Positions 3,464 through 49,737 of a stretch of 64,000 nucleotides of DNA are shown here, piece after piece. Position 1 is the first letter of the stretch. Each line of letters begins with the position of its first letter. Source of the stretch: an uncultured bacterium (GTDB taxonomy: Bacteria; CSSED10-310; CAZUFC01). The stretch is taken from positions 1,161-65,160 of the forward strand of contig CAZUFC010000019.1 in NCBI GenBank assembly GCA_964619725.1, written 5' to 3'. The notes below the pieces were generated by a model. It was not told the origin of the DNA, did not search any database, and worked only from the letters and a program-made list of their open reading frames with translations. Made by a program: the position numbers and the translations under genes.

Positions 3464-3538
3464 TGTCTGTCCATAAAAGGTCGGGATATATCATAAATTC
3501 AGTACGCATTTGCGGTTCAGTAAGAATAAAAACAAACC

Positions 3539-3725: not shown

Positions 3726-3763
3726 GAAAAGGCCTGCGACAGCATCATGTCGCAGGCCTTTTC
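3726..3763. terminator. Probable bidirectional intrinsic terminator between convergent genes
   Basis: GAAAAGGCCTGCGACA-GCATCA-TGTCGCAGGCCTTTTC, a perfect stem with A/T tracts at both ends, 14 bp past the stop of 3777..9473. Confidence 0.8.
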
Positions 3764-3776
3764 CTGTAAGATGATT

Positions 3777-9868: not shown

Positions 9869-9897
9869 TTGACAGAAGCTGGATGATCCGGTAAAAA
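9869..9897 (+). promoter_or_regulatory. Putative sigma70 promoter for the AAA+ ATPase gene
   Basis: TTGACA-N17-TAAAAA. Confidence 0.45.
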
Positions 9898-9948
9898 TAA
9901 TTGCCGGATTGTTTTTTATCTGGTAATAAATTTTTTCAGGAGACTCGG

Positions 9949-23882: not shown

Positions 23883-26800
23883 TTATTCTTCATTATTTCC
23901 CTCTCCCCCATGCTCATCCTGCGATTTACTCAACATATAAACATACGCGTCTTCCAGGTTCGGCTTGATGGTTACGGCGTCATATGCCGGTTTTTGTTCT
24001 GCCAGGAGACGGCATTTTATTCCCTCCGGGATTCTTTTTTTCGTTAATATTCTGTATTGTTTTTTGAACGACTGTATATGTCTGTCGTCTACCGTCACTT
24101 CGTAGACTTTACCTTCCGTCATTTTTATCAACCGATCTACCGTTCCAGAAAAGACTATTTCTGATTTATTCATTACGGCTACTTTTCTGCATGTTCTCTG
24201 CACATCCTCTACAATGTGGGTGGACAGGATAACTGTGGAATTCCTGGCCATTTCGCCTATCATGTTGCGGAATTTCACTCTTGATTCAGGGTCAAGTCCT
24301 ACCGTCGGTTCATCAATAATGAGTACCGGCGGCTGTCTGACCAGGGTCAGGGCTACTCCTAATCTTCTTTTCATGCCGCCGGAGAATCCGTCTACTTTTC
24401 TGTCGGCGGCATCGGACAGTTCTACGGCTTTCAGAATGTTTCGGATTCTTAGTTTTCTTGTTTCAGGATTGTTTTCACCGTTCATTATGAGCCAGTAATC
24501 CAGCAGTTTCTTTGGGGTGAAGCTTTCGTAGAAATCGAAGTCCTGAGGAAGGCAGCCTGTCAATCTGCGGGCCGTATAGGGGTATTGTTCCGCCGGCAGG
24601 CCGGCTATGCGAACTGTTCCTAGAGTGGGTTTTATTTCTCCGGCTATCATTCTCATCAGGGTAGATTTTCCCGCTCCGTTGGGTCCCAGCAGTCCGAGCA
24701 TGCCGCTTTGGATGCTGATATTTATGTTTGATACTGCCTGAGTTCCATCAGGATATATTTTCGTCAGGTTCCTCACCTCTATGCCGGCCTTAATTCGGGT
24801 CAAATCCTGTTTTCTTTCCTGTTTTCTTCTGGAGAGGTATTTTTTCAGGTTTTTGATGTCGTCTGCTGCATAGATTATTGCAGGTATAAGAAAGAGTGCT
24901 GTAAACGCAGCGGAAAGCATACCGCCAATCAGGGATACGGCGAACGGTCGCCATATGCTTTTCTGGAACAATAAGGGGAAGACGGCAAGCATGGTGGTAC
25001 CCGACATCAGCAGTATGGGTTTGATACGGTCCCTTGCAGCATAAAGCAGCGCTGACGCCCTGCCGCTTCCTCTGGACATATTCAGCCTCATGCGGTCCAG
25101 CATAACTATGCTGTTGTTGACGGTTATCCCCAGCAACAGGTAAAAACTTAAATAGGTAATCTCATTCAGCGGCATCATGGTCAAAACCAGGCTCCAGACG
25201 GCCCCGGCCAGGGCAGCGGGAATAATAAGCATGACCAGCAGGGGCCATGACGCAGATTCATAAGCGGAAGCCAGAATAATATAAATCAGAACGGCGGCAG
25301 CGAGGATTACTTTCAACATATCGATATTCTGTTTTCTTGTTTTCTGTTTCTGTTCTTCTCTTGTTTCGATCAGTTCCGCCGAGCTGCCCGGCGCGTAGAA
25401 ACAATCCAGCGTTTTTCTGACTTTCTTCAGGAAAAGGTCCTTGCGATGTTTTTCCAGGCCGTTCAATGAAGCCCCTGTGGGAAGAGAAGCGGGCGGGAAA
25501 ACTATGGGAATTTCCAGGCGTCTGATGCCGTTGAAATGATAAATATTCGACGACATGGTTTCCCTGGTCAGATAACCTGTCCTGTTGAGGTCTATTCTGC
25601 GTCCTTTATAGACTACGACAGGGGCTTGCATTGCTTCTGCAGCGGATAGGCTTTCATGTTTCGAGTCCCGACTGACCATTCTCAGGGGCAGTATCTCGGT
25701 CCCGTCCGGCGATTCCAGCCTGCACACTAACAAGCCATCTTTCTGATGAAACTTTATGTCTTCGTTCAACTGTTTTAAGTCGATATTGCTGCCGAGGATT
25801 TTTTCCGGGTCCAGAGAAAGGACGAAAAATTCTTTTTCCTTGTCGACGGGAAATGTGGGTTTGTAATTGGACAGCATGGTTCTGAAGATTTTGATGAGCT
25901 CCGTCATATCCTTACCGGGATAACCGCTTATTCTCAGTTTGAATGGGTAGAAAGAGTCGTAGCCGTTCTCATTTTGATTCGGGGGATTGAGCATCAGTTT
26001 AATGCCTGGAGTTTGGCGCGGCAGTTCGGTTATCATTTCTCTCAACTCAATCAATTTTTCCGGATTCTGATATTTTTCAGCAATACGCAGAATTAAGTCG
26101 AATCGACCCGGGAAGACTACGGTTCTGACTGATTCAATTTCTTTTTTATCGAGGAGGAGCTCTTCGGTTTGAGCAGCGTAGCGTTCTGATGCGATGAGGT
26201 CGGCATCGGAGAATGTTTCGAAGGATGCCGTTATTTCATTTTTTCTTTGAGTTCTGAGGATTGAAAGCTGCAGATGTGGGAGGAGGAGCACGGTGAGCGC
26301 GATGAAAATGAAAACGGCTGACAGGATGAAAATGTGCCGGTTACGGATAATACTTGTGAGACGGCGGATATACTTTTTGTCCAGTCCGGCGGCATCGAAT
26401 GCTGTTTTTTTGTAGGCTTTGAATTGAAAGCGGCAGAAATAGAGATAAACGACAGTTAATGAAATGGGGAGAGAAACGATGAGCAGTGCTGCGACGGTAT
26501 AGAGAGCCGGTTTGAGTAAAATGTGAGTGGATTTCCGTGACATGAGGAGGGGAATGAAAACGATCAGGGTGGTGAGGTTTGAGGCTGTGAGCGGTCTGAT
26601 TATTCCTGAGAATGTTTCCAGGAAGGATTGGGACCGTCGTTTTAATTCAGAGATTTTACGGCGATTGAGCAGGTTATCTAGAATAATGACGGCGTTATCT
26701 ATCAGGAGACCCAATCCTACGGCGGTTCCGCATAAAGTGAGCACATTGAAGGAGAGCCCGGTGAGATACATGATATTGAAAAGGGTCATCAGGCTGATGA

Positions 26801-27917
26801 GTATGATTGAGACGAGCATGAGTGCGGTTATCATGCTTTTAAAGAAGAGTCTGAAAAGCAGGAGGACGAGTAAGATGCCGACAATGTTGGCTGCGGCCAG
26901 GTATTTGACGGCAGAATAGAGTTCGTCGGCGGCATCGAAATAGAAATCGATCTCCATTGGCTTGCCGGCGCTTTTCTTATTGATTTCCTCCAGGATAGAG
27001 GGGAGTGCGTTTTTGAGGTTAAGCGCTGTTTTTCTGAGGTCGGCGTCATTTTTTCTATGTATGTCCAGGTAGATGAATCTTTTGCCGTCGATACGGTTGA
27101 TGGATTCGGCATCGAAGTTAATTTTTTCAATATTTCCCAGTTGTTGCAGGGGTATGAAGTTATGTGGAGCATAGTGAATGTGTGTATTTTCCACATTATC
27201 CGCGTGGACTGAAGGAATAATCCATTTAGCGGGTATAAGGAGGTCACCGGATTCTACGTTGCCGATGGAATGAGGTCTGCGTCCGGCATAACGGCGCAGC
27301 AGGGCGGCCAGTTCATGCGGCGAAAGATTAAGGCTTTGGATTTTGATGGGGTCAGGAGAGAACTCCACGCCGACTTTCTGTCCTCCGTAGACGGTTATTT
27401 GGCCAATACCGTGTATTTTTTCCAGATGAGGAGTCAGTAATGCGTCGACGACGTTTCTGAGGCGATGGCGGTCCATGTCGCTTTTAATGATGAGTTCCGC
27501 CAGTATGGTATCCTGGTAAGCGATGTTTCTGATGGAATAATTGATGTCCTGCCAATCGGATTTATCGGCGATCAATTTTCTGACCTGGTAGGTAAGTTTA
27601 TGGTAGAACAGATTACGGTCGGTTTTTCGATTAAGTTCAATGCGCGTCCAGAGGCTCAGCCGGTCGATAAAAGTTTCCGCTTTTTCGACGCCGGGCATGC
27701 GCAGCAGCATTTTATCGACGTCTTCGGCGAGATTTCTTTCGATCAGTTCCGGGGGATGCGGCTCCGGCAGTGAAATGCTAAGGAAAAACAGGGGCAGTGA
27801 TGCATCGGGCAGAAACTCAACAGGCAATCTGCCCAGGGCGGCGGCGCCGAGAATGATCAGGGCAAGTATGATGACGATTCCTGCAACGGGACGCCCCATG
27901 TGACTTTTTTCAATCAT
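23883..27917 (-). CDS. AcrB-like RND permease fused in frame to a C-terminal ABC ATPase domain
   Basis: First ~1020 aa follow the RND layout (RPVA...LPVEFLP, GLLIDNAVIILD, YES..WPL.VM..IP.A..G, GITVNNSIVMLD, RIKPILLM). Last ~300 aa contain GPNGAGKST, LPQ Q-loop, FSGGMKRR, IIDEPT.GLDP, STH. Confidence 0.9.
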   Translation of the reverse strand: MIEKSHMGRPVAGIVIILALIILGAAALGRLPVEFLPDASLPLFFLSISLPEPHPPELIERNLAEDVDKMLLRMPGVEKAETFIDRLSLWTRIELNRKTDRNLFYHKLTYQVRKLIADKSDWQDINYSIRNIAYQDTILAELIIKSDMDRHRLRNVVDALLTPHLEKIHGIGQITVYGGQKVGVEFSPDPIKIQSLNLSPHELAALLRRYAGRRPHSIGNVESGDLLIPAKWIIPSVHADNVENTHIHYAPHNFIPLQQLGNIEKINFDAESINRIDGKRFIYLDIHRKNDADLRKTALNLKNALPSILEEINKKSAGKPMEIDFYFDAADELYSAVKYLAAANIVGILLVLLLFRLFFKSMITALMLVSIILISLMTLFNIMYLTGLSFNVLTLCGTAVGLGLLIDNAVIILDNLLNRRKISELKRRSQSFLETFSGIIRPLTASNLTTLIVFIPLLMSRKSTHILLKPALYTVAALLIVSLPISLTVVYLYFCRFQFKAYKKTAFDAAGLDKKYIRRLTSIIRNRHIFILSAVFIFIALTVLLLPHLQLSILRTQRKNEITASFETFSDADLIASERYAAQTEELLLDKKEIESVRTVVFPGRFDLILRIAEKYQNPEKLIELREMITELPRQTPGIKLMLNPPNQNENGYDSFYPFKLRISGYPGKDMTELIKIFRTMLSNYKPTFPVDKEKEFFVLSLDPEKILGSNIDLKQLNEDIKFHQKDGLLVCRLESPDGTEILPLRMVSRDSKHESLSAAEAMQAPVVVYKGRRIDLNRTGYLTRETMSSNIYHFNGIRRLEIPIVFPPASLPTGASLNGLEKHRKDLFLKKVRKTLDCFYAPGSSAELIETREEQKQKTRKQNIDMLKVILAAAVLIYIILASAYESASWPLLVMLIIPAALAGAVWSLVLTMMPLNEITYLSFYLLLGITVNNSIVMLDRMRLNMSRGSGRASALLYAARDRIKPILLMSGTTMLAVFPLLFQKSIWRPFAVSLIGGMLSAAFTALFLIPAIIYAADDIKNLKKYLSRRKQERKQDLTRIKAGIEVRNLTKIYPDGTQAVSNINISIQSGMLGLLGPNGAGKSTLMRMIAGEIKPTLGTVRIAGLPAEQYPYTARRLTGCLPQDFDFYESFTPKKLLDYWLIMNGENNPETRKLRIRNILKAVELSDAADRKVDGFSGGMKRRLGVALTLVRQPPVLIIDEPTVGLDPESRVKFRNMIGEMARNSTVILSTHIVEDVQRTCRKVAVMNKSEIVFSGTVDRLIKMTEGKVYEVTVDDRHIQSFKKQYRILTKKRIPEGIKCRLLAEQKPAYDAVTIKPNLEDAYVYMLSKSQDEHGGEGNNEE

Positions 27918-30900
27918 TTTTTTTCTTAAGCATCATGGAGTAGGCGACGGGTATTACGAACAGGGTGAAAACAGCGGAAGCAGTGAGACCGCCTATAATG
28001 GGCAGAGCTATGGGGGCGCGTAGCTCCCCGCCCTGACCGAGACCGAGCGACATGGGAAGGAGTGCAAGTATTGTGGTGGCTGTAGTCATAAGGACGGGTC
28101 TGAGTCTTTCGGCGGCGGCTTCTATGCCCCTGTGGTCCCAGGACGTTCCGGTGTTTTTATTCAGATTATCGAGCAGAACGATGGCGTTATTGACGACGAT
28201 GCCCAGAAGGACTATGGAGCCGATTAGGGTAAGAATGTTTATTGACGAGCCGGATATCAGCAGAAGGGGAATAATGCCGATGCCTGCAGGCGGAATGGAC
28301 AGCAGCATAATGAACGGCAACTTGAAAGATTCGAAAAGAGCGGCCAGAGTCATATAGACCAGCATGAGGGAGAGTATGCCGGCGTATAGCAGGTTTTTAA
28401 AGGAATTGCGCATTTGCTCGCCTTCGCCTCGAATGACGGCTGCACTTTCCGGCGGACGAGGCATATCACTTAGTGTTCGTTCGACGAGATTTATCGCCTT
28501 ATCGAGCGACAGAGCCGTTTCTGCGGTGATTTCTTCGATACGTTTGCCGTCGCGTCGAACGATTGCTGTTTTTCTTTCGACCATGTTGATGTCGGCAATA
28601 TGTTTGAGCTTGACGTGAACGCCTTGCTTCAGAGTCACCGGCGCTTCCCTGAGTCCTTGGATGTCGTAAAGGTTTGTTGAAGAGAGAACAAGTGAGATGT
28701 CCAACGGCTTTTCGTCAAGGAAAAGTGTTTGGACTTTCACGGGTTCCACGATTCCGGTCAGCGAATCCAGCGCTTCTTCATATTCAAGCGCCCATCTGGA
28801 TTGAGCATCCTGACGAAGATTCAATTCGATGAATGGGCTCATGTCGGACTGGGAGCTCGATACATTCAAAAACTGCCCCGTCGCCTTCAATTCGTTCTCA
28901 AGGCGTATCGCCCAGTCGCTCAAAGCTTCAAGATTCTCTCCCCTCAGTTCAACGGCAACGGATGCGGCCTGTTCACCGGGCAGGAAGGGCAGAATTTCCG
29001 ATTTTTGGTATATTTTAAACTGAGAGCCGGGAATCAGAGCTGCCGTATTTTTCAGACGATTCGTCAGGCTGCGTATTTTTTCACCTCCGGCCGGTTTAAG
29101 CTGCACCAGCAAAACAGCCTGTCGACCGCCGCTGGTTGTCTCTTGAGACTGAACCATTCCGCCGGGCATATCGCCTATCAGGGTCGTATATGCTTCAACG
29201 CCAGGGTCGCCGGATACGATTTTTTCCAGCGGATCGACCGCCCGGTTTGTGGAGTCGATATTCGTGCCTGGAGGCATGTTCAGAACGGCGGAGAACCTGG
29301 TCAGTGCGCAGTCGGGTATGAATTCTTTGCGGAGCAGGGGAAACATTGCGACGGCAAGAAGTATGGCGGCAATTGAAAATAGAATTACAGAACGGGGATG
29401 CCGTATGCAGAAGAGCAATGATTTTTCATAATTCCGGCGCAAGGGGCCATGTTTCTGTTTGAGCGAAGCGTAACCAACGGTAGAAATAATCTTGTAAGCT
29501 GCCGTGGGGATAAGTATCAGGGAAACGAGCAGGGAGATGGCCAGGGAAAAGGATACGGTGAGCGCCTGATGTCCGAAGAAGCGGGCAGCAGGGCCGCTGA
29601 TGTATATAATGGGCAGGAAGATAATAAGAGTGGTGACGGTAGAGGCTATAATGGGCACGGCGACTTTTCCTGTTCCTGCGATGTGAGGTTGTTTCAGTTT
29701 CTTTTCCCGTGAGCTCTGGATGCTTTCCATAACCACGATAGCGTTGTCCACGAGCATGCCGGCGCCTAAAGCCAGGCCGCCCAGTGTCATCAGATTGAGG
29801 GTCAATCCGGTGAACCGCAGGAGGATAAAGGTGGATATGATGGATACGGGTATGGACAGAGCAATGATGACGGTGGGCAGAAGTCCTCGCAGGAACATCC
29901 ATACGACTGCAGCAGCCAGCAGGCAGCCGATAATAGTGACCGACCGGAGCTGCTCCATGGCGGACCTTATAAAAGAAGCCCTGTTGTATACTATTGCCAG
30001 TTCGGCATCAGCAGGAATAACGCTTTTTAATTCCTCCAGGTTTGCTTTAATGACTTTTTCAACCTGAAGAGCATTGGCTGAGGCGGTCCTGTCCACGGCG
30101 AGAATGACTGCGGGCCGGCCGTCAGAGCGACAAATGGCTGCCGGTTTTTTGTATTCTCTGGTGATTTCGCCGATTTCCTTAAGATACAGCGGTTTTCTGT
30201 TCGAGCCGAACGTCACGGGGATATTTTTAATTCCTTCAATACTGTGTTCCGTAAGCCGGAGTCTTAAGGGCAGCCTAGTGTCCTCAATATCGAAAGAACC
30301 TGCTGGAATATCGTTTTTGAATAGTTTGAGGGCTTTCGTAACGTCGCTCATTTTTAAATGGAACTCTTCCAGTTTATAAGGATCGATGCGAATAAGAATT
30401 TCTTCTTCAATTCCACCCAGCACATTAACTGCCGCCACGCCGCCTAAACTCATTAGGGACGGAACCATAACCTCTTGAGCAATATAGGTCAACGTTGCCG
30501 GTTCAGGTCCCGTCAAGGCGATGTAAAGCACGGGCAGGCTGTTGGCCTGATGTTGATGTATCTGCATTTTTGAAAAAAGTGCGGGATAGGCATCGCTGAT
30601 GCTTTTTACGACGTCGAGCATAGCTGCATCGGTATTTTTGCCTTCTCGCATTTTAAGTATGACGGTCGCCCGGTCCATTCTGCATATGGAGCGAACTTCT
30701 GTGACGCCCTGGATACGGGAGCAAGCTGCTTCTATCGGCCGTATGCTCTCCTCGACCTGTTCCGGCGTCTGGCCCTGGAAGTCGAACATGAGGGTCAATT
30801 CAGGGAGCTGTATTTCCGGCAGCAGTTCCACGGGAATCTGTCGCCAGGCGGCGATACCCGCCAGCATCAATCCGGCGAAAACCATAAAAACGGTTACCGG

Positions 30901-30930
30901 CCTTTTGTATATGAAGCTCCAATGGCTCAT
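27910..30930 (-). CDS. AcrB/AcrD/AcrF-family RND permease
   Basis: RPVTV.M...PVELLP, SIP.SII.TF, LN.MTLGGLALG.GMLVDNAIVVME, FES.KLPFI...SIP, GIVVNNAIVL.D, RLRPVLMTT.TT.LALLP. Confidence 0.95.
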   Translation of the reverse strand: MSHWSFIYKRPVTVFMVFAGLMLAGIAAWRQIPVELLPEIQLPELTLMFDFQGQTPEQVEESIRPIEAACSRIQGVTEVRSICRMDRATVILKMREGKNTDAAMLDVVKSISDAYPALFSKMQIHQHQANSLPVLYIALTGPEPATLTYIAQEVMVPSLMSLGGVAAVNVLGGIEEEILIRIDPYKLEEFHLKMSDVTKALKLFKNDIPAGSFDIEDTRLPLRLRLTEHSIEGIKNIPVTFGSNRKPLYLKEIGEITREYKKPAAICRSDGRPAVILAVDRTASANALQVEKVIKANLEELKSVIPADAELAIVYNRASFIRSAMEQLRSVTIIGCLLAAAVVWMFLRGLLPTVIIALSIPVSIISTFILLRFTGLTLNLMTLGGLALGAGMLVDNAIVVMESIQSSREKKLKQPHIAGTGKVAVPIIASTVTTLIIFLPIIYISGPAARFFGHQALTVSFSLAISLLVSLILIPTAAYKIISTVGYASLKQKHGPLRRNYEKSLLFCIRHPRSVILFSIAAILLAVAMFPLLRKEFIPDCALTRFSAVLNMPPGTNIDSTNRAVDPLEKIVSGDPGVEAYTTLIGDMPGGMVQSQETTSGGRQAVLLVQLKPAGGEKIRSLTNRLKNTAALIPGSQFKIYQKSEILPFLPGEQAASVAVELRGENLEALSDWAIRLENELKATGQFLNVSSSQSDMSPFIELNLRQDAQSRWALEYEEALDSLTGIVEPVKVQTLFLDEKPLDISLVLSSTNLYDIQGLREAPVTLKQGVHVKLKHIADINMVERKTAIVRRDGKRIEEITAETALSLDKAINLVERTLSDMPRPPESAAVIRGEGEQMRNSFKNLLYAGILSLMLVYMTLAALFESFKLPFIMLLSIPPAGIGIIPLLLISGSSINILTLIGSIVLLGIVVNNAIVLLDNLNKNTGTSWDHRGIEAAAERLRPVLMTTATTILALLPMSLGLGQGGELRAPIALPIIGGLTASAVFTLFVIPVAYSMMLKKKND

Positions 30931-31997
30931 TGTTCGATGACCTTGACGGGCGAATGATTTTCCAGCGACTGGACGGACGAGACGATAAGCGTTTCCCCTG
31001 TTTTCAAGCCTGCCGCCGCTTCGATTTGATCCTTATTTTCGTAACCCGTCTGTATTTCTCTGAGCTTGGCCACGGGATGCTCCAGGTATGATTCTTCAAC
31101 GACGAATACATAAGTTTTGTCGTCGATCTCCCTTACCGCTCTCCGGGGAACCGTTATGATTCCGCTTAGCTGCTTTACTATAATGGATGCTCTGGCGAAA
31201 ACCCCCGACATAATTTCCTGTCCTAGAGGCTGCGTTTTAATTTTTATTTTTACTGTCCTGTCCCGGTCATCCACGGTCATACCCACTTCATCAACCTCGC
31301 CCATCAGGATTTTCCCGGGAGGCGATTCAAGCTCTATTTCCACAGCCTGGCCCGGCTGAACGCTTGCAACGTCATCCAGCGGAATAGATGTTTTCATCAC
31401 ATATTCATCTCTGTCTTCAATTCTTGCGATTTCAACGCCTTTTTCAATCCGTGCTCCGGGAATAAAGTCGCCTATGTTGGTAATAACGCCGTCAAAAGGA
31501 CTGACCAGTTTCGATTTCTGAAGCTCAAGCTTCGATAAATCGTAATCGATCCTGGCCAGTTGATAATCATATTCCGCCTGCTCCAATTCAGACCTGGGTA
31601 TTATACGGCTTTGACTCGCCTCCAGTTTAAGCTCGTAATCCTTCTTCTTGCGTTTGTAATCCAATTCCGCATATTGAGCCTTCAGGCGTTTCGTTTCATT
31701 GTCCACCGTAGCTATAACCTGGTTTTTACTCACGGGCATGCCGATTTTCATACCTTCCAGGACTGTTTCCAGACGCCCCTCGAAAGGCGTCTTTATAACA
31801 GCATTTTTACATGATTCCAGGTTGCCGCTGCATTCCACACGGATGTCCATGCCACTCAGCTCAGTCTGAGAAGTCAAGACAGGATATAACATATACGATG
31901 CCCTGGCCTGTTTATAATCGCTGTCGCCGGAGTAACCGCAGGCTGTGAGTAAACTAAGGAGACCCAGTAAAATTACGTTGCACTTTTTTTTGATCAT
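30927..31997 (-). CDS. RND periplasmic adaptor (membrane fusion) lipoprotein
   Basis: Lipobox LLTAC; lipoyl half-motifs around a helical hairpin, SPFDGVI, V.PGQ.V, VPRRAV, GLK.GE..I. Confidence 0.92.
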   Translation of the reverse strand: MIKKKCNVILLGLLSLLTACGYSGDSDYKQARASYMLYPVLTSQTELSGMDIRVECSGNLESCKNAVIKTPFEGRLETVLEGMKIGMPVSKNQVIATVDNETKRLKAQYAELDYKRKKKDYELKLEASQSRIIPRSELEQAEYDYQLARIDYDLSKLELQKSKLVSPFDGVITNIGDFIPGARIEKGVEIARIEDRDEYVMKTSIPLDDVASVQPGQAVEIELESPPGKILMGEVDEVGMTVDDRDRTVKIKIKTQPLGQEIMSGVFARASIIVKQLSGIITVPRRAVREIDDKTYVFVVEESYLEHPVAKLREIQTGYENKDQIEAAAGLKTGETLIVSSVQSLENHSPVKVIEQ

Positions 31998-32004
31998 AAT
32001 GCAA

Positions 32005-32751
32005 TCACCTTTGAAGTAAATATTTTTCCGTATTTTGTAATCTTATAATCGTCAAAAGCATGAGTGCTGCTGCTGCGCCCATCAGGACGAGCCTGTTTTG
32101 GAGGACTATAATGGTCCAGTTAAAAGGCATTCTGAAAGAACGGGGCAGAACAGCCCAGAAAAAGGGGTCGGCGTTATCTGTAAATTTTGAGCATATTGTC
32201 AGGCATATAGCAGCAGCGAACAGCGTTTTCGTTCCGCTGCGGAAGATGCTGCCCAGGAACAGGCATACTGTTTGAATAAAAAAGAGAGGGGGCAGAACAT
32301 GCACCCAGAACTTCGGCAAATCCAGAAGAATTTCCTCCAGTTCCGAATGTCGAAAAGTAGATGTGGGGGACAACAGAGCGGCTGCTTTCATTATAAGAAG
32401 ATGTCCCGGTACGATGCTTAAAGCGATGACTGCTGCGATCGCGGCCAGGAACAAAAACAATGCGATTGATTTGGACAGAATTACACCGGAGAAACCCCTG
32501 TCGGATGTGAATATAAATTCATGGGTCTGGTTGCGAAATTCCGAAGCGATCAAATTGGAGCTGAGGAGGAGAGTGATGACGCCTAGAGTAAGAGCATAAA
32601 GAATGAATATCGTTTCAAATAGATTCAGGGAGCTCAGGAGGACCAAAGCCAGGATGAACCAGTCGCTGTTTTTTCCCATACATTGTCTGGCGACGTATCT
32701 TCCGTAACGCAGAAAAAGGGCGAATTTATGAATAATGCGGGAAATGTTCAT
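32005..32751 (-). CDS. ABC-2 type permease-like membrane protein
   Basis: About six TM helices; ASEFRNQTHEFIFT...ILSK motif; C-terminal NRLVL; overlaps the ABC ATPase stop. Confidence 0.72.
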   Translation of the reverse strand: MNISRIIHKFALFLRYGRYVARQCMGKNSDWFILALVLLSSLNLFETIFILYALTLGVITLLLSSNLIASEFRNQTHEFIFTSDRGFSGVILSKSIALFLFLAAIAAVIALSIVPGHLLIMKAAALLSPTSTFRHSELEEILLDLPKFWVHVLPPLFFIQTVCLFLGSIFRSGTKTLFAAAICLTICSKFTDNADPFFWAVLPRSFRMPFNWTIIVLQNRLVLMGAAAALMLLTIIRLQNTEKYLLQR

Positions 32752-33629
32752 AAGCTTTTTTCGATGCTGCGCCTCCGCAGCCAGGCTATATAAACGTCTT
32801 CAAAAATGGGAAGGGTTTTTTCGTATCCCGGCGGTTGACTCAGCGACAATTTTTTAAAGATACGGTATGGGCCGTCCTGTCTGATGGAAATGATCCGTTC
32901 ATCGGTGGTTTCCGTGGCGTCGTCGCGGATACTGCCTTTCTCCCAGATAAAAGGCATCATTTCCTGGAAAAGGTCAGCCGGCGTTCCCAGGAATCCTATT
33001 CTTCCCTTCTCCATAATTGCGAGCTTGTTGCAGGTTATTTCAATATCCTCGACAATATGAGTCGACAGTATGATCAAGCGGTCTCCGGGCAGGTCCGATA
33101 AAATATTGCGGAAGGAAATGCGCTCTTCAGGGTCCAGTCCGGCGGTGGGTTCATCGACAATCAGAAAAACAGGATCGTTCAGGAGGGCCTGAGCGATACC
33201 CAGCCGCCTTTTCATCCCCCCGGAATAGGACGTCAAAGCTGTGTTGCGGTATTCCCACAGTCCTACCAGCTCCAGCAGCTTGCGGGACCGTTTTTTTATG
33301 ATGTGATGGTAATCCGAATAAAAGTGTGCCATAAAATTGAGGAATTCCAGGGCATTGATGCGGGGCGGTACGCCGAAAGTCTGGGGGAGGTAACCGATTT
33401 TTGACAGGACAGCACGCCTTTTTTTGGGATGAAACATATCAGAATCGCCGATAGTCACCTGGCCTGCATCGGGAAAGGAAAGCCCGGTCAGAATGCGGAT
33501 GAACGTCGTTTTGCCGGCCCCGTTAGGTCCCAGCAATCCCAGAATGCCTTCCTCGATTTCCAGATTCAATCCGCATAATGCATTCACCTCACCAAAACTT
33601 TTGTGGATATTTTCCGCTTTAATTTTCAA
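32748..33629 (-). CDS. ABC transporter ATP-binding protein
   Basis: GPNGAGKTT, YLPQ, YSGGMKRRLGIAQAL, IVDEPTAGLDP, STH. Start refined to TTG 33629 (AAGGAG upstream). Confidence 0.93.
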   Translation of the reverse strand: MKIKAENIHKSFGEVNALCGLNLEIEEGILGLLGPNGAGKTTFIRILTGLSFPDAGQVTIGDSDMFHPKKRRAVLSKIGYLPQTFGVPPRINALEFLNFMAHFYSDYHHIIKKRSRKLLELVGLWEYRNTALTSYSGGMKRRLGIAQALLNDPVFLIVDEPTAGLDPEERISFRNILSDLPGDRLIILSTHIVEDIEITCNKLAIMEKGRIGFLGTPADLFQEMMPFIWEKGSIRDDATETTDERIISIRQDGPYRIFKKLSLSQPPGYEKTLPIFEDVYIAWLRRRSIEKSL

Positions 33630-33778
33630 AGCCGGTTCTCCTTTTACCGGAATCGCCGTCAATGTGAGATTTTTTATGGCTTTCCAGCGGTTCCGGCTGT
33701 CCCGATTTAACGCTTTTTCTCATGCTGCTTTTTTTTCCATGCGAAAGTTCAACAAACTTATGTTTAATCCGAGGATTT

Positions 33779-36505
33779 TCAATCAGTCAACTCCACATTA
33801 GCCGTAAAATAATGGGAAAAATTCATGGTCCTGTTTTTTGGGTCCAGAGTAACGGTTTTGGGTTTGGAGCGTGTTTTCAATTCGAGTTGGAGAATTTGAT
33901 CCTGGGGTAGTGCGACGTTGACGGTTTTTTTCTCACTCAAGCTTTCCAGCGTCAAAGGAACCGGAGATTTAAAGTCTCCTTCATTTTTCACCGTAATGTG
34001 GGTAATATATCCGTCGAGGGTCTTTTCAGCACGGCATTTTTTAACGGCGTAAGAAAGCGAGCCTGCCTGGGTCAGGAACATCGCCACGGCATCATGCACG
34101 ACGGGATCATCTGCCTGCTTCTTGAGGTATTCAATGAAATCCCAGATTTCTGCGGACTGATACAAGTATTTTTTCCAGAAGGCTTGTATCAGTTCGATAT
34201 AGCGGTCTCTGCCGATGAGATAGTCCATAGTCGCGTGAAACTGGACGCATTTTTTCTGATATATGCCCAGCATATCGGGATTCTGTGAATCGAACTCAGT
34301 GAGTATCATGGAATTCCAGATGGTCATTTCACTTTCTCTTTTATATGTGAAGTAGAATCCGAGTGAAGAAGTAAGGGAGTTCATGTATCGAATGAGCGCT
34401 CTTGTGAGTATCTCCTGAGCTGGACCTGTAATTCTGACGTTATGGTACCATGCGGTATTGAGTATGGGTCGGACGATAAAATCATAAGCCCAGTCTGTTT
34501 TTTTGCCGCTGTAAACAGACTTGTCCCAGTTCATGCGGAAGGAAGTTTCGGAGAGCGTAATCGGCGGAGTTTTTCTGTATGTAAGCATTCCATTCCATTC
34601 TATTATCATCGCTGCATCCAGGTTGGGCGGACCGGGTAAGACTTCATCCGGTTTGTATTGAGGTCCCAGGTGATCATTAATGCGTTGCAGCCGGTCACGG
34701 TGTTCCGGCAGATGGAGCATAAGAACGGGTAAGGCGCCGAGCATGAAACGGGTTTCCTCGAATGGTCCCCAGACGAGATATATTTCCCGAATTGGACGAG
34801 TCGTTTTCCAAGTTATGAAATCAGAATGGGATTCAAGTTCCGACTTTTCTCCGACAGTCCAATAGGGAATATCGCAACGGGGAACATGAATTGCGGCCTG
34901 AAAGAAACCCGGATGATGCCGGCTGAGTTTGTGGTCTTCGAAATCGTATGCCGGAATGGGATACCAGTTGTCTTCCAATAACAAGAATCCGCGTTCGGTG
35001 AAAGCGTCATAACGGGCCCCCCTGTCGGGCTCGTAATAATTGAATTCAAAAAGCTGAGCTCTTGTGATTATTTTTTTTCCGAGCGAACCCAGGAAAGAAT
35101 TGAGATTCTCATATTTAAAATTCAGCTCAGCTCCCGCAGGAATTATTCCTGTCCAGGCATCAGAATAATGTAGTTTTATAATGGTTGAATCGCCCGGCGG
35201 CAGGGGGGATTCCGGTTTTATTTTCAGGAGGGAATGCATCCTGAAGAAGGAGAGAGCAACGTTGGAGCTGTTGTCGGTGATTTTTTGGATGAAGTATCGG
35301 GGATTCAGCATGAGGTCGATGGACTTCAGATTTTGATTTCCCTGGTTTTTCAAGGTCATTTCGGCCTGGATTTGCATTTTACCCGTATGAGGTCCGACCA
35401 GTATGCGAATATCATAGCGGGATATGTGCAGATGCTGATAATCGGCGATCATATGTGAAGCCGACAGCCTTTCCAGCTCCTCCGTATTTTTCAATTGAGC
35501 GACGGCATCCTGTCGAAGCCATAATTCCCGGAAGATCAGTATAGCCAGGGTAAGGAAAAGGAGGAAAAGAGACAACCTCAGCGGGCGTTTGGGTTTTATT
35601 TTTTTGAGTTTCGGTTTTCCAGGTTTGAAAAGAGTGAGCAGTGACCGGAACTTTGAGGCGACGTCTTCGATGAGGTCTTTTTTATGGCGAAAAAGCAGGG
35701 ATGATTTATTTTGAATAGTTATAAACAGGAATAATGGGATGAGAAAAACCTGCGCCAACCTTCTGTATATAAAAGGAGCTATACCGGCGGGAAAGCCGAG
35801 GGTCTGGGTGAATTCGGTCTGAAGAAGTGTAAGTCCCATCAGATCGGAAAGAGCATAGGAGCAGGTAATCAAAAATTCTGAAATCACTAGAAAAAACATG
35901 GAGAGGACGAGGGGAATGAATGCGGACTGAAAACATGAGCTGACGGCCAGGGCAAGAGAAACGGCAATAAAAATGGAAACCGTCGCAGATAAAAAATAAA
36001 ATAAATAAAGCCAGGGAATCGGCGCTTCCGCGGCTGCGATCAATTCAGTAAAGAATCCTATAGAGCCGCTTAAGAAGAGGCCCAGGCATGCCGGCGCCGT
36101 CAGAATGAGGAATATACCCAGGGTCTGCTCCAGCGCCGAATAGGGTTTGACTCTGAGCATTTCTTCCATCTTATGCTTAATGTTTCGGTGCCAGGATTCA
36201 GGGACGGCCAGGATGGAAAGCAGCATAACCGGAACGGAGGGACAGAGTATCGAAAGAGACGCTGCAAACCCCGACCAGCAATTTTCTCCAGTCAGGGAAG
36301 CAATACCGTAAACAGAGGCCAGTCTATAGGCTTTCGTTCCCAGATACCCCAGGTTGCGGAGATCAATCTGCAGGACCGTAAGAATGCAGATGGGCAATGT
36401 CAAAAATGATGGCAACAGCAGCAAAAACCAGAAAAGGTATCCTCTTTTCTGGTAAAGCAGTTCAAATCCGGCGAATCCGGAAATTCTTCTTAATGATTCA
36501 ATCAT
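33779..36505 (-). CDS. ABC permease fused to a degenerate M1 aminopeptidase-like ectodomain
   Basis: N-terminal ~330 aa multi-TM with EMLRVKPYS; then an M1-like fold (A.MTLKN, I.L.LNP, PL.PG....I..HY, WYP, Y.K....H......IG.D.Y.......Y.Y......DF, V.LDP). No HEXXH. Confidence 0.75.
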   Translation of the reverse strand: MIESLRRISGFAGFELLYQKRGYLFWFLLLLPSFLTLPICILTVLQIDLRNLGYLGTKAYRLASVYGIASLTGENCWSGFAASLSILCPSVPVMLLSILAVPESWHRNIKHKMEEMLRVKPYSALEQTLGIFLILTAPACLGLFLSGSIGFFTELIAAAEAPIPWLYLFYFLSATVSIFIAVSLALAVSSCFQSAFIPLVLSMFFLVISEFLITCSYALSDLMGLTLLQTEFTQTLGFPAGIAPFIYRRLAQVFLIPLFLFITIQNKSSLLFRHKKDLIEDVASKFRSLLTLFKPGKPKLKKIKPKRPLRLSLFLLFLTLAILIFRELWLRQDAVAQLKNTEELERLSASHMIADYQHLHISRYDIRILVGPHTGKMQIQAEMTLKNQGNQNLKSIDLMLNPRYFIQKITDNSSNVALSFFRMHSLLKIKPESPLPPGDSTIIKLHYSDAWTGIIPAGAELNFKYENLNSFLGSLGKKIITRAQLFEFNYYEPDRGARYDAFTERGFLLLEDNWYPIPAYDFEDHKLSRHHPGFFQAAIHVPRCDIPYWTVGEKSELESHSDFITWKTTRPIREIYLVWGPFEETRFMLGALPVLMLHLPEHRDRLQRINDHLGPQYKPDEVLPGPPNLDAAMIIEWNGMLTYRKTPPITLSETSFRMNWDKSVYSGKKTDWAYDFIVRPILNTAWYHNVRITGPAQEILTRALIRYMNSLTSSLGFYFTYKRESEMTIWNSMILTEFDSQNPDMLGIYQKKCVQFHATMDYLIGRDRYIELIQAFWKKYLYQSAEIWDFIEYLKKQADDPVVHDAVAMFLTQAGSLSYAVKKCRAEKTLDGYITHITVKNEGDFKSPVPLTLESLSEKKTVNVALPQDQILQLELKTRSKPKTVTLDPKNRTMNFSHYFTANVELTD

Positions 36506-37205
36506 TTTTTTTCAAGGATTCGGGTTCCAATTGAGCCTGCAGGTTAAGAAGGGCGATTCGTGATGCCAGAAAATCGCCGTCGATTTTCAGCGCTTTCAAA
36601 AAGCATTCCTGAGCCTTATTATGCTGATCTTCATACCATTCTATCAGCCCCTTCAGATGATAGGCCTGAGGAAGCTCCTTACTGACAGCGATAGAACTTT
36701 CAATATCCCTTCTCGCTCCGGCTATGTCGTTCACCTTGAGTCGTCTTCCTGCTATTTCGAGCAGGTAATGAGCCGTTTTATTCTTGAACCCGGTTTCGCG
36801 ATCATTGCGGGCAACTGTGGTAAGGAGCTCAGGAACGACTTCTGAAAGAAGTGAAATTTGATCTTCTAGTGACTGGGAACCCATTGCCTCCAATCGGGAA
36901 TCCATGCATTCCGATGCGGCCCTGACCCCCAGCGACCGAAATACCGGCAAAAAAGTCCACCAGCCTGGAGCGTCCGATCTCATTAATTTAAAATATATCC
37001 TGTCTGCGCCGGCCCTGTCGCCGCGTTGAACCAGTTTATGCGCTTTTTTAAGCTCCCCGGAAGGCATACAACCTCCGGCGAAAATCACGATTATTACGAT
37101 CAAGGCTGATAAATCGAACTTCGGGACCGCTAGGCTGCGTCTTCTTTCCACCCTCCGTGTTCGTATGACTGATGCCCTTGAATTCATGACCCCATTACTC
37201 TCCAA
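36498..37205 (-). CDS. TPR-containing putative lipoprotein, first gene of the export operon
   Basis: Hydrophobic stretch ending IFAGGC (lipobox); TPR-like AYHLKGLI......KAQECFLKALKID. True start uncertain. Confidence 0.7.
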   Translation of the reverse strand: MESNGVMNSRASVIRTRRVERRRSLAVPKFDLSALIVIIVIFAGGCMPSGELKKAHKLVQRGDRAGADRIYFKLMRSDAPGWWTFLPVFRSLGVRAASECMDSRLEAMGSQSLEDQISLLSEVVPELLTTVARNDRETGFKNKTAHYLLEIAGRRLKVNDIAGARRDIESSIAVSKELPQAYHLKGLIEWYEDQHNKAQECFLKALKIDGDFLASRIALLNLQAQLEPESLKKND

Positions 37206-37644: not shown

Positions 37645-40600
37645 ATGAAACTTTTTAGGATGGCGAGAGTCTTGATTGTTTTTTTTGTTTTAATTTCAAT
37701 AAGTTGTTCAGCCCTGGGTCATTATGGAGGATTTTACGGATCAGACATGACCGGTTCGAAGGGATGGAGCGATGATCCGGCGGTGAATATACGCGTAAGT
37801 GCATCGCAGGGTGATCAGGCGAACCAGAGAGTAATTTCTGACGGTCAGGGGGGTTTCATCACGGCCTGGGAGAGGTTGGGGGATATATTTGTACAGCGGC
37901 TGGACGAATATGGCGAGCGCGACTGGGGAACCGAGGGAGTGACGGTATGCGGTGATGCTTCATTACAGGAGATGTCGGGTATATGTCGTGACGGTTCGGG
38001 AGGCGCCATAATAGTATGGAGGGATGCTCGGAACGGGGTTATGGGAATCTGGGGACAGCGAATCGGAGCATCCGGGAGTCCCATGTGGACCATTGACGGC
38101 GTGCAGGTATCGGGAAGCGGCGATTATACGGGAGGTCAGGCGATATCGGATGATGCCGGCGGGGTTTATGTTGTGTATGAGGGATCAGAGAGCGGAGTTT
38201 TTTGTACGAGGTTAGACGGGATGGACGGAAGCGAAATTTGGACCATTCAAACCGATGCATCCGGTATGCTGTGCAGTGGAACTGCGGCAGCGGAAGACGG
38301 AACGGGCGGAGTTTTGCTGGGATGGGAGAGGAGAAGCGTGCTGTTTTATGGAAAATTCGTGATGAGCATGGGAGGAGGAGCCAGGGACGACGGTTCGATA
38401 TATTTAAAGGATACTATAGGGCAATCATCGCCTCCTGGAGAATCAAGCGATGAGAATTACAGTGTGAAAGGTGGATTCTGGAAGCCTACGCATGCGAATT
38501 TGCCGATAAGCGAAAGCGATATATATGTGCAGAGACTTGATTCCGCCGGGACCGAATTATGGGGAGCCGGCGGCATATGTTTGTATGATACGTCTGAAGC
38601 GCAGAAAAATCCTCGAGCGGCATCAGACGGAAGCGGGTGCGGATTTTTCGTTTGGGAGGATATGAGGTCTCCGAGCAACACCAGGAGTCTGTATATACAA
38701 AAGATCGACAGTGGAGGTTCAATCGTATGGCGAGCTGACGGCGTTCAGGTATATGCCGGAGGAGCGAGCGAGTATGAGCTTATGAGTCATGCTGTAGTAT
38801 CGGATTCTGAAGGCGGAGCGGTCATAACCTGGTGTGCTGGGAATCGTGATGTTTATGCAACCCGAATAGACTCAAACGGAGATAATGCCTGGGGGGGAGA
38901 GGTCGCTCTAACGGATCACGAAGAGACGTCGGGTGTATCGGATTATCCCTATCAATCGGTATCGGACGGACTGGGCGGAGCGTTTACGGTATTTTCACGC
39001 CGGAACGAGCCGGCAAACAGTTATGAGATAGTATGTCAGAGCGTCGCGTATAATGGAAGTTTACCCTGGGGAATAAACGGAGAAGCGGTATGCATTTATG
39101 CTCAGGGAGAGCGGTATAACGCATTGGTTGCGAAATGCGACGGGAACATGACCGGCGCTCTATGTTGCTGGATTGACGAAAGGACAGTCGATTCGGAGGC
39201 CCTTTACGTAATGGGAATAAACCTCTACGGCGAACTCGGCGATCCCTGTTCGACGCTTCCTACAATAACGCCCACATTGACGCCTGTTCCGCCTACGCCG
39301 ACTCCTGAGCCGCCCACACTTACTCCGACTATTCCTCCGCCTCCGGCAGTCGTCTGGATCGACGATGACTTTAACGATTCGACTCCGGGCTGGGGTTACG
39401 ATCATTTTTCAGTCATTCAGGCCGGCTTGGATGCCGTGGCTGACGGCGGCGATATATATGTTGCTTCCGGTCTTTACAATGAAACAATCGGCTTCGATTC
39501 ATCATTTAATAAAAACAATATTTCCTTTTTCGGCGAATCCGGCGACAGACCGACGGTAGCAGGCGGCATGCATTTCGACAACGACGCAGCGATCTTAAAT
39601 ATTAACTTTGAAAACATGTATTTCAAAGGAGATGCCGGAGGTAATAATGCCGTAATAGGAATGACCAATTTGGGAGCTGTCCAGAATTTCAGCATGAAAA
39701 ACTGCGTTATAGACGGAGAAAACGCAATCGACAGGCATGGATTGGCCGGTAAAAACTTTGAGGGTTCTTTTTCCGTCACGGATACGGAGTTCAAGAACAT
39801 TTTGGGCTGGGCTGCAATGGATATGAACATCGACAGCCCGGATGGAGCGAATGAGCTGCCCATAAATTCGATCACATTCACAGGCAATTACATCCATGAT
39901 TCAAACGGGGTAACCGCTTTAAGGGGAAATGAAATCACGCGAAGCATCCTGGTTAATGTTGCCGATAATTCCTGGGACAACATCGGAGGAAACGGAGGAG
40001 CTGCAGGGGGACATTGGACGGCTCTGGAGGTCAACCATTCTGCAGAAGTAAACATCTACGGCAATGCGATCAACGATGTCAGCCAGGGGCAGAATTCTGA
40101 AGGCAAAGCGATTATCGTGTGGGATATTGTAGAGCTCATCTGCCGTTGCAATGATATAACGAACAATTATGAGGGCATATACGTTTACGGGGGCGGCGGC
40201 GTTTATGGCGGTCCTTATGCCGTGCCTTTCGGATATGTCGCATACAATAATATCATGAACAATTCCGAGTATGGTCTGACTGTCGATGATTATGCAACGG
40301 GGGACCCTCTAAGGGCCGACTTCAATTACTGGAATGCGGCTGACGGTCCGGGAGGCGATGCCGAGGGAAGCGGGGATGCTGTTTACGGTAATGCCGTGTG
40401 GGAGCCCTGGCTGAATGCAGTGCAGGAGCCGCCTTGTCCGCCTCCCTGTTACAATGACGGCGATGTCGACAATAACGGGAGTTTAACCCCGAATGACGGC
40501 ATGATGACATTCAGGATATACATCGGATACATTTCATATCCGACTTACGAAGAGGAGTGTTCTTCAGATTGTGACGGAAACGGTTATATATCACCTGGAG

Positions 40601-49516: not shown

Positions 49517-49737
49517 AAATGAATTCCTCCTCCTCAATTCGCCGTTCAATCAATGCACGACGAATAATTGAACATAAAAGATTAAATTAATTCATTAAGC
49601 TGTTTCTTTTTCGATTCAAAACTATGAAGCTAACGCCGGAAACCTTCCCCTGTCAGGATTAACATGTTTCAATATACAACCAGGTCAAGCCTTCCGGCGC
49701 ATCGCTTGAAATTAAACCGGTGAGAGATGATAATTGA

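Follow-up and report, generated by a model that had tools for sequence, protein, structure and literature searches.

RND pumps are driven by ions and ABC exporters by ATP, and the two are taught as separate solutions to efflux. Positions 23883-37205 of the window (the whole stretch of DNA that was analysed, 64,000 nucleotides) carry seven co-oriented genes on the minus strand, the last of which encodes an RND permease and an ABC ATPase (Table 1), and the question raised by this locus is whether the two engines can be joined in one machine. Our comparative analysis demonstrates that the RND-ABC fusion is genuine, that its component set is conserved and that both ATPase sites are canonical. We further consider it on balance probable that the operon encodes a composite envelope exporter, in which an ABC heterodimer is anchored to a single subunit of a heteromeric RND pump.

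The operon and its fused gene

All seven of the mostly overlapping genes proposed in a preliminary description were recovered as open reading frames, with overlaps of 8, 4, 4 and 8 nt at four of the six junctions and gaps of 116 and 7 nt at the other two. A promoter and terminator scan gave counts not above those of shuffled sequence, and the sequencing runs found for the stretch were of DNA alone, none being recorded as RNA.

Table 1. Positions of the seven genes of the operon and of the three parts of the fusion within the window
Feature	Position	Strand	Remark
Probable TPR lipoprotein, first gene, 235 aa	36498-37205	-	overlaps next gene by 8 nt
Probable large ABC-2-type permease with M1-like ectodomain, 908 aa	33779-36505	-	fold and look-alike evidence
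Free ABC ATPase, ABC-2/DrrA/GldA type, 304 aa	32748-33662	-	ABC_tran
Small polytopic membrane protein, 248 aa; putative second ABC-2 membrane domain	32005-32751	-	overlaps ATPase gene by 4 nt
MFP periplasmic adaptor lipoprotein, 356 aa	30927-31997	-	HlyD/RND_mfp
Partner RND permease, full length, 1006 aa	27910-30930	-	ACR_tran 6.1e-184
RND-ABC fusion, last gene, one 1344-aa frame	23883-27917	-	ACR_tran + ABC_tran
Fusion: RND permease part, aa 1-1021	24855-27917	-	ACR_tran 9e-91; divergent
Fusion: linker, aa 1022-1044, 23 residues, K/R-rich	24786-24854	-	translation
Fusion: ABC ATPase domain, aa 1045-1344 and stop codon	23883-24785	-	ABC_tran 1.3e-25; ABC-2-typical C-terminal domain included

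The first gene product had been called a TPR lipoprotein; a lipobox-like FAGGC signal, looser than that of the MFP, speaks for the label, but the matches to TPR_8, TPR_2 and TPR_1 at aa 179-211 (E 1.9e-5 to 5e-4) all fall under the Pfam cut-offs. Its gene overlap is the one feature suggesting that this protein belongs to the system, and the gene was not seen at the other loci. The MFP scores 155.9 bits against TIGR01730 RND_mfp (cut-off 94.9), which places it among the adaptors, and it has HlyD_D23 and HlyD_3 matches and an LLTAC lipobox. No OMF gene was found in the operon or on this contig, and to that extent the reported lack of a TolC-like gene is true locally, but 26 OEP half-matches elsewhere in the genome correspond to 13 OMF ORFs, all on other contigs, and the homologous Bacteroidota operons carry an OMF in cis.

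Both RNDs are members of ACR_tran (cut-off 28 bits), the partner with 613.9 bits over aa 6-999 and the RND part of the fusion with 305.5. The latter has the 12-TM layout with two periplasmic loops and all AcrB subdomains at similar lengths, as judged against what we take to be the AcrB subdomain limits; it is only about 24% identical to all other fusions and sits on a long branch in the RND tree. Pfam places an MMPL match at aa 864-1021 and the ABC_tran match at aa 1063-1205 of the same protein. Every catalytic motif claimed for the fused ATPase, and others besides, was found: Walker A (1078, GPNGAGKST), the Q-loop (Q1125), the signature (1179, SGGMKRR), Walker B (1198, VLIIDEP), the D-loop (1207) and the H-loop (H1234). 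These motifs are invariant across 26 aligned fusions, which also keep a C-terminal 'EPNLEDAY'-like motif, and the free ATPase has the same complete set.

Fused and free ATPases both belong to ABC_tran (91 and 100.5 bits, cut-off 25; E 1.6e-28 for the free one). Their closest NCBIfam families are ABC-2 types, with the fused domain falling short of the drrA (179.2 of 312.45 bits), GldA (170.6 of 402.6) and NodI (138.7 of 521) cut-offs and the free ATPase likewise under these equivalog cut-offs (drrA E 1.4e-52, GldA E 3.7e-48). The top PDB matches of the fused domain are the NBDs of ABCA4 and ABCA1, that of ABCA3 also being among the best. The two ATPases had been regarded as close relatives; at 36% identity, they are no nearer to each other than to ATPases of other genomes (38-42%), and the fused domain shares 50% identity with P0005, a CSSED10-310 fusion.

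Since the source genome was assembled from a metagenome and is a draft (344 contigs, contamination 6.5%), the fusion might be an assembly or sequencing artefact in which a lost stop or a frameshift merged two neighbouring genes. However, the reading frame of the linker is continuous, with neither stop nor frameshift, and the junction is bridged with 0 differences and no gaps by contigs of three further samples from the same study (X3, 24705-25311; X2, 24619-24843 and 24815-24967; X4, 24684-24848), a further sample, X1, being the probable source. The same architecture is present in 115 other database proteins, and RND and ABC domains share a single frame at 53 metagenome loci. Together, these observations refute the artefact as far as contigs allow, and we give it a negligible chance.

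Recurrence in other genomes

A search for the domain architecture indicated that the fusion is a family: 116 of the best 120 long ATPase-matching proteins (739-2352 aa, query included) carry both PF00873 and PF00005, and the source names among these 120 include CSSED10-310, Bacteroidota, KSB1, Calditrichaeota, Acidobacteriota, Fidelibacterota and Omnitrophota. The conservation of the neighbourhood, which had been proposed as a check, was borne out as well. In each of four Bacteroidota genomes, a single free ATPase and a single fused one of this type pass E<=1e-60; they lie some 14 kb from each other, and the gene order is ATPase, large ABC-2 permease with ectodomain, OMF, MFP, RND, RND-ABC and a 238-aa membrane protein. 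The right-hand half of this order was also found on a contig of a Pseudomonadales MAG. In a CSSED10-310 relative, a homologue of the large permease and a fusion are recorded on a contig of equal length (31,616 bp) with accessions five apart, in keeping with the gene order of the window. When metagenomes were scanned with the small membrane protein as seed, 80 loci were obtained, 69 of them with at least 400 nt upstream. There the upstream ORF was RND and ABC in one frame at 53 loci and an ABC-ending ORF cut by the contig end at 14; of the remaining two, one had a broken frame (L134) and one lay outside the overlap rule (L133). At all 24 metagenome loci with at least 9,900 nt upstream, MFP, RND, RND-ABC and small protein were found in succession. 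The conserved set comprises the free ATPase, the large ABC-2 permease with its dead M1-like ectodomain, the small permease, the MFP, the partner RND and the RND-ABC fusion.

The fusion was present in one of 150 sampled Bacteroidota genomes, and none was found among the 150 matches listed for 13 same-phylum genomes (549 further matches lie beyond these); the system is therefore sporadic. A contig scan with the fusion alignment, which captures generic ABC motifs only, returned mostly free ATPases, with one fused ORF in 80 loci, and four of its loci were the left ends of fusion operons. Some candidates were rejected: in two same-phylum genomes, the matches spanning query aa 874-1269 came from a 435-aa membrane protein with an ATPase after it instead of an RND fusion, and the long frames over RND matches in G004 and G028 were plain RNDs with extended frames. 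In an NBD tree (FastTree, 209 rows), the main fused clade held 96 rows with support 84, and a second of 23 rows lay amid free ATPases; because its rows had been selected for likeness to the query and long branches come together in it, this tree does not bear on the number of fusion events.

This distribution invites the reading that two independent exporters of one pathway have merely become linked in a loose Rosetta-stone fusion, which would give co-localisation or equal dosage of co-expressed machines, but neither hand-over nor allosteric coupling. The sporadic occurrence is compatible with it, as are the difference in gene order between the window (permease, ATPase, small permease, MFP, RND, RND-ABC) and the Bacteroidota type and the existence, within the same RND clade, of a simple MFP-RND-RND arrangement without ABC genes. 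We nevertheless think it unlikely, given that the fusion and all its partners are retained across several phyla, that the long-class fusions have membrane-helix insertions in the ATPase next to the RND, suggestive of intimate packing, and that the short linker of the window protein forces proximity. An exporter with the ABC unit tethered to the pump remains the reading followed below.

The RND pair and its proton-relay residues

The RND tree separates partner-type from fused-type proteins as sister clades with SH-aLRT 94 and 91, which are nested in a clade of support 100. The partner RND of the window clusters with its counterparts from other fusion operons, and the fused RND lies beside P0005 in the fused-type clade. 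Neither window RND reaches the NCBIfam HAE-1 subfamily and equivalog cut-offs; for the partner, MdtC ranked second with 364.8 bits, far under its cut-off.

For AcrB, we take D407, D408, K940, R971 and T978 to be the proton-relay residues. Their equivalents are D, N, N, R and T in the partner RND and D, N, N, R and M in the fused one (relay-pattern strings DNNNRT and DNNNRM), which differ from the HAE-1 relay set. An altered TM11 motif had been noted in the fused RND; R973 to K, M977 to L and T978 to M are real changes and the only ones, but the equivalent of R971 is retained. The idea that these changes mark a special decay of the fused RND did not hold, the non-canonical relay being common to both window RNDs and to all 78 long fusions. 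All 78 long fusions, 30 partner RNDs and one unfused tandem RND pair without adjoining ABC genes retain D407, R971 and the polar N/N/N set; because it also occurs in the partners and in the unfused pair, the D-N/N-N/R pattern is older than the fusion. Since both RNDs have N for D408 and K940, ion coupling is no more than putative throughout the RND clade. Of the 24 aligned fusions shorter than 1400 aa (window fusion counted), 22 have lost the relay residues, and the RND part may therefore be a scaffold, not a pump, in that size class.

These residues bear on the proposal of an ATP-driven RND, in which the fused ATPase, alone or as a dimer with the free one, would act on the RND membrane domain and replace or gate ion coupling, with the two membrane proteins as accessories. 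The N residues at both D408 and K940 and the relay loss in the shorter fusions, with all ATPase motifs invariant, agree with such a mechanism; against it, the relay pattern predates the fusion. A further prediction of this proposal concerns the two membrane proteins, which leads to the ABC side of the operon.

Putative membrane partners of the ATPases and the proposed machine

The large permease has about seven hydrophobic segments within aa 1 to ~353 and an extracytoplasmic ectodomain at aa ~354-908. It has no Pfam or NCBIfam match, a word-index search returned no relative of it, and its one strong homologue is P0124 (32% identity, E 2e-130). Weak matches link it to M1 peptidases and to ABC2_membrane+M1+Golvesin_C proteins, and a protein language model places it near clusters named 'ABC transporter permease/M1 family aminopeptidase' (0.96-0.97). 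In an AF2 model of low confidence (pLDDT 60.3), the Foldseek PDB matches listed were all M1 aminopeptidases (E down to 8.7e-13, TM 0.25-0.29). The zinc site of M1 aminopeptidases consists of GxMEN and HExxH-x18-E, and both HExxH and GxMEN are missing in all ten aligned proteins (the large permease and nine relatives). The model and the missing catalytic motifs thus support an ectodomain that probably has an M1-like fold and is not an enzyme, in keeping with the pseudo-M1 label given to it earlier.

The small membrane protein has no Pfam match, and neither permease hits ABC2_membrane at E<=0.01, a point in favour of the ATP-driven RND. Relatives of the small protein reach ABC2_membrane families at E 0.048-0.068 only, and P0124 scores 18 bits against a cut-off of 27.2; the Bacteroidota large permease, in contrast, reaches ABC2_membrane_2 with 40.2 bits (cut-off 27.2). 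The small protein resembles the 231-239-aa proteins encoded just after fusions elsewhere (hhalign 95%, E 3.5e-8, 202 columns). Its AF2 monomer model is of no use (pLDDT 46.9). A complex model of this protein with the fused ATPase scored 0.74 (runs 0.70, 0.75 and 0.74), and the best of three controls scored 0.00. Of 80 solved complexes, 58 score that high, as do 2 of 110 mismatched pairs. At least 94% of contacts are common to the runs, the partner pLDDT is at least 81, and the modelled contacts join aa 9-29, 70-94 and 241-246 of the small protein to NBD aa 1124-1149, the Q-loop region. The alignments behind this model are shallow, it may pass through likeness to solved ABC-2 transporters, and it does not discriminate between the fused and the free ATPase; the claim that the fused ATPase contacts the ABC permeases is in this measure backed for the small permease in the canonical Q-loop groove, but not for one ATPase over the other. 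This placement in a canonical ABC groove, the ABC2_membrane_2 match of the Bacteroidota permease and the presence of a free ATPase and two permease-like genes beside the fusion wherever the flank sufficed all speak against an ATP-driven RND, which we judge quite unlikely.

We return to the tethered exporter, in which the motors of an ABC-2-type heterodimer would be the free ATPase and the C-terminal ATPase of the fusion, and the heteromeric RND pump would consist of the partner and the RND part of the fusion, served by the lipoprotein adaptor and by an outer-membrane channel whose gene lies in another part of the genome. The cytoplasmic linker would run from TM12 of the RND to the ATPase and thus keep the ABC unit next to a single RND protomer within the inner membrane. 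As the likeliest mode, we propose a two-stage relay: a substrate embedded in the membrane or present in the cytoplasm would be lifted by the ATP-driven ABC unit to the outer leaflet or into the periplasm, and the ion-driven RND, adaptor and channel would then expel it across the outer membrane, with the dead M1-like ectodomain possibly serving as a periplasmic binding or docking module. The MdtBC heterotrimer has the stoichiometry B2C. One fused RND per RND trimer would bring exactly one tethered ATPase, which may account for the constant company that two different permeases, two RND paralogues and one free ATPase paralogue keep in these operons. A single assembly of two ATPase domains, two ABC membrane domains and two RNDs, as first suggested, gains strongly from the component set conserved across phyla, the two RND clades and the docking model, but we infer its stoichiometry, as we do the physical assembly, the order of transport, the use of both energy sources and the substrate. 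Tentatively, the operon may represent an undescribed class of envelope-spanning pump with two energy sources in one covalent complex, in which an ABC-2 heterodimer on one protomer of an RND heterotrimer passes its substrate from the inner membrane directly to the RND, adaptor and channel, and the dead M1 fold acts as a coupling or substrate-holding module; we regard this as a serious possibility, short of a probable one.

Parts of this arrangement recall known systems. Like MdtABC, it has two tandem RND paralogues and one MFP; unlike MdtABC, one paralogue bears an ABC ATPase, an ABC-2 module is co-encoded and the relay is D-N/N-N/R-T instead of D-D/K-N/R-T. MacAB-TolC likewise combines an ABC transporter bearing a periplasmic domain with an MFP and an OMF, whereas the ATPase here is of the ABC-2/DrrA/GldA/ABCA type and not MacB, the membrane domains are probably ABC-2-like and not FtsX-like, and an RND is added. 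Among ABC-2 exporters (DrrAB, NodIJ, GldAFG and eukaryotic ABCA), drrA, GldA and NodI are the best families of both ATPases and ABCA NBDs are the PDB counterparts, but no equivalog cut-off is reached, one ATPase is joined to an RND and one permease carries a dead M1-like ectodomain. The permease/M1 aminopeptidase proteins share the domain order of the large permease; they differ from it and its nine relatives in that these lack HExxH and GxMEN, and Golvesin_C, present in the Bacteroidota versions, is absent from the window permease. Full-text literature searches outside subscription journals and supplements yielded no description of an RND-ABC fusion or of permease/M1 proteins. The accessible part of a 2021 review (PMC8277102) describes RNDs of the HAE-1 group as 'rarely also heterotrimers, such as MdtBC' and contains no mention of fused, hybrid or chimeric RND-ABC proteins. 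The arrangement recurs in several phyla, yet seems never to have been studied before.

The family adds an RND clade not characterised so far, whose relay is D-N/N-N/R-T, and an inactive M1 fold that recurs on an ABC permease. The fusion makes two long-discussed ideas directly testable, namely that periplasmic RND pumps receive their substrates in two steps from exporters of the inner membrane and that heteromeric RND trimers exist to break symmetry for an asymmetric partner. Some members belong to Bacteroidota that are cultivable or well assembled, which brings genetics and cryo-EM within reach. If the tethered exporter is true, it would be the first natural case of both engines in one machine.

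The RND-ABC fusion and its operon

The seven ORFs of the operon, which overlap by 4 or 8 nt at four of their six junctions, end with P0001, a 1344-aa protein joining an RND permease to an ABC ATPase. The last hydrophobic segment of this protein stops near aa 1021, and the first ATPase strand begins at aa 1045, after a K/R-rich linker. The fused ATPase and the free ATPase of the operon are 36% identical, and both carry the complete set of ATPase motifs.

Features of the operon and of its flanks
Feature	Position (nt)	Strand	Remarks
Operon	37205-23883	-	seven ORFs
Gene 1, 235-aa protein		-	sub-threshold TPR matches and loose lipobox
Gene 2, 908-aa protein (P0002)		-	no family match
Gene 3, 304-aa ABC ATPase (free)		-	family match
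Gene 4, 248-aa membrane protein (P0003)		-	no family match
Gene 5, 356-aa RND-type adaptor		-	clear lipobox
Gene 6, 1006-aa RND permease (partner RND)	27910-30930	-	full length
Gene 7, 1344-aa fusion (P0001)		-	ACR_tran 305.5 bits; ABC_tran 91 bits, aa 1063-1205
Fused RND part of gene 7	24855-27917	-	
Linker in gene 7	24786-24854	-	23 residues, aa 1022-1044
Giant ORF	3777-9473	-	1898 aa
Giant ORF	41582-49549	-	2655 aa
Giant ORF	49738-55140	-	1800 aa
Giant ORF	55160-63805	-	2881 aa
ORF divergent from operon	37645-41271	+	1208 aa; sole match a cohesin domain, aa 1037-1130

The preliminary description had read this locus, from the sequence only, as a hybrid RND-ABC export operon. Nucleotides 24300-25400 were present in four runs, all from one microbial-mat study; one of these may be the source, and the contigs of the other three were taken as the check. 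These contigs (assembled contigs rather than raw reads, and from a single study) bridge the linker with no differences or gaps, and the junction is continuous. When the ATPase part alone was searched against 5.8 billion proteins, restricted to 739-2352 aa, PF00873 and PF00005 occurred together in 116 of the 120 best rows (query included), whose named sources were CSSED10-310, Bacteroidota, KSB1, Calditrichaeota, Acidobacteriota, Fidelibacterota and Omnitrophota; other organisms thus lend the architecture independent support. As far as these data go, an artefact is excluded, and we give that origin of the fusion practically no chance.

We found no description of an RND-ABC fusion in the searched part of the full-text literature and of a 2021 review (PMC8277102), a search lying outside subscription journals, supplements and transporter databases; database annotators have registered this architecture, for which JGI uses the name 'AcrB/ABC-type multidrug transport system ATPase subunit'. 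The fusions are therefore on record and apparently unstudied.

Several giant beta-helix proteins and one protein with a cohesin domain are encoded in the flanks of the operon, which hold nothing conserved that points to a substrate. The four giant ORFs, three of them consecutive and just upstream of the operon region, carry right-handed beta-helix/NosD repeats, PPC and disaggregatase-related domains and probably encode large surface or secreted proteins. Within positions 1-10000, G+C rises to 0.52-0.59 at 2001-10000 (the operon region has 0.45-0.48), and this rise coincides with the first giant ORF.

Fusion family, gene order and distribution

RND-ABC fusions fall into size classes. In the long class, at about 1550-1610 aa (loci L097-L100 and L101-L180, with fusion genes of about 1570 aa), the RND part is strong, and its TM12 is followed by two additional helices and then by the first ATPase strand ('I..NLTKIY'). 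Between this strand and the Walker A region lies an insertion of about 190 aa, in which there are about four hydrophobic segments. It is in itself unusual for an ABC ATPase domain to contain a membrane-embedded insertion; the window fusion is without it.

In each of four Bacteroidota genomes, exactly one free and one fused ATPase of this kind match at E<=1e-60, both at a single locus, where the order is free ATPase (297-316 aa), ABC-2 permease (1111-1171 aa; its ectodomain is large and it ends in Golvesin_C), outer-membrane factor (OMF), periplasmic adaptor (MFP), RND (1024-1041 aa), RND-ABC (1567-1589 aa) and small membrane protein (238-239 aa). A Pseudomonadales MAG contig likewise carries a Golvesin_C-ending ORF, MFP, RND, a 1612-aa RND-ABC and a small protein of 231 aa. 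In the Sunxiuqinia locus (L097, 448-3464), the fusion operon is immediately preceded by one gene for PorP/SprF and one for a TPR-PD40-OmpA protein. The nearest relative of the window fusion is P0005 (ATPase part 50% identical), and the sole strong relative of P0002 is P0124 (32%, 2e-130); both come from one CSSED10-310 bacterium, each recorded on a 31,616-bp contig, and their accessions are five apart, a spacing that, judged from these two records, matches that of the window.

P0003 reaches no Pfam threshold and is related to the small proteins downstream of fusions elsewhere (hhalign 95%, E 3.5e-8, 202 columns). Metagenome contigs scanned with this small-protein family gave at least 504 relatives, and the 80 best loci were retained; at 56-74% identity to the seed, these are close kin and include some duplicates. 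Among the 69 loci with at least 400 nt upstream, RND and ABC shared a single upstream frame in 53, an ABC-ending frame was cut by the contig end in 14, the fused frame was broken in one (L134), and one (L133) fell outside the overlap rule. MFP, RND, RND-ABC and small protein stand in this order at all 24 loci having at least 9,900 nt upstream. The system is sporadic: it is present in one of 150 evenly drawn Bacteroidota genomes, and the fusion is absent among the 150 matches listed (549 further ones being unlisted) for 13 genomes from the phylum to which the window belongs.

The two RND paralogues

In an RND tree of 43 rows, a clade with a support of 100 divides in two. The partner-type clade (support 94) groups the 1006-aa window RND with partners from five further loci and with one of the unfused RNDs of G004, a genome from the window's phylum; the fused-type clade (support 91, then 96) takes in every one of the 31 fused RND parts, together with the other G004 RND and a single outlier on a long branch. 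G004 has MFP-RND-RND and no adjoining ABC genes; the ABC module was therefore added to a heteromeric RND pump that already existed.

Relay positions were read from the alignment to E. coli AcrB (407/408/940/941/971/978), where they are DDKNRT. They read DNNNRT in the window partner RND, both unfused G004 RNDs and 78 of 78 fusions of at least 1500 aa, D-N-N-[NDSH]-R-[TMN] in 30 partner RNDs, DNNNRM in the window fused RND, and DDK[NH]RT in two outgroup RNDs. The altered TM11 motif previously singled out in the fused RND comes down to R973K, M977L and T978M, and the R971 equivalent is retained; D408N and K940N, the larger departure from AcrB, are common to the whole clade. Throughout the latter, D-N/N-N/R-T replaces the canonical D-D/K-N/R-T in fused and unfused RNDs alike (window RNDs, L014, L097-L180). 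Only two of 24 aligned fusions below 1400 aa, the window protein and one other, retain the relay pattern, and the window fused RND sits on a long branch, about 24% identical to all others. Given this relay loss and the long branch, the fused RND may be on its way to a scaffold role in this lineage.

ABC membrane parts and a possible coupled pump

P0002 has about seven hydrophobic segments as far as aa 331, beyond which its AF2 model (10 sequences; mean pLDDT 60.3, pTM 0.46) comprises a beta domain, a helical domain and a beta sandwich. Every listed Foldseek match of this model in the PDB was an M1 aminopeptidase (among them IRAP, ERAP1, ERAP2, PSA and tricorn F3; E 8.7e-13 to about 5e-10), with TM scores of just 0.20-0.29, as a poor multidomain model would lead one to expect. 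HMMER gave weak matches both to M1 peptidases and to proteins of the ABC2_membrane+M1+Golvesin_C type, in agreement with the language-model look-alikes, which are permease/M1-type proteins, and HExxH and GxMEN occur in none of ten aligned proteins. Thus, 'permease fused to a pseudo-M1 domain', in the sense of the label originally proposed, is a fair description.

The complex model of P0003 with the fused ATPase scored 0.74, and the best of three controls scored 0.00; among solved complexes 58 of 80 attained this mark, among mismatched pairs 2 of 110. Contacts agreed by at least 94% across runs, with a partner pLDDT of at least 81. P0003 is predicted to contact ATPase residues 1124-1149 around the Q-loop through its N-terminal helix, its loop at aa 70-94 and its C-terminus. 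The model supports binding of P0003 to the fused ATPase; since the contact is the standard ABC interface, the passing score may reflect likeness to solved ABC-2 transporters, and the model cannot tell the fused from the free ATPase as the preferred partner.

The data establish that the fusion is real, that both ATPases are canonical, that a pair of RND paralogues and an adaptor are present, and that the set of partners is conserved. We propose a model whereby the free and fused ATPases would dimerise as the motor of an ABC-2 exporter, with the P0002 N-terminus and P0003 as its membrane halves; the linker would hold this exporter beside one RND protomer, and the ABC unit would deliver substrate to the periplasmic side, where the RND/MFP/OMF conduit would then expel it. 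A single fused RND in each trimer would account for the components coming as unequal pairs. On balance, we lean slightly towards such a physically assembled ABC-RND complex acting as a relay; a loose fusion with no coupling seems improbable, and an RND driven directly by ATP a little more so, with the rest of the weight assigned to none of these readings. The relay would blend three kinds of machine, the MdtBC-type heteromeric RND pump, the MacAB-type ABC tripartite pump and the ABC-2 exporter, and the window system showed equivalog-level membership in none of them. It would represent a categorically new class of pump only if the coupling is true.
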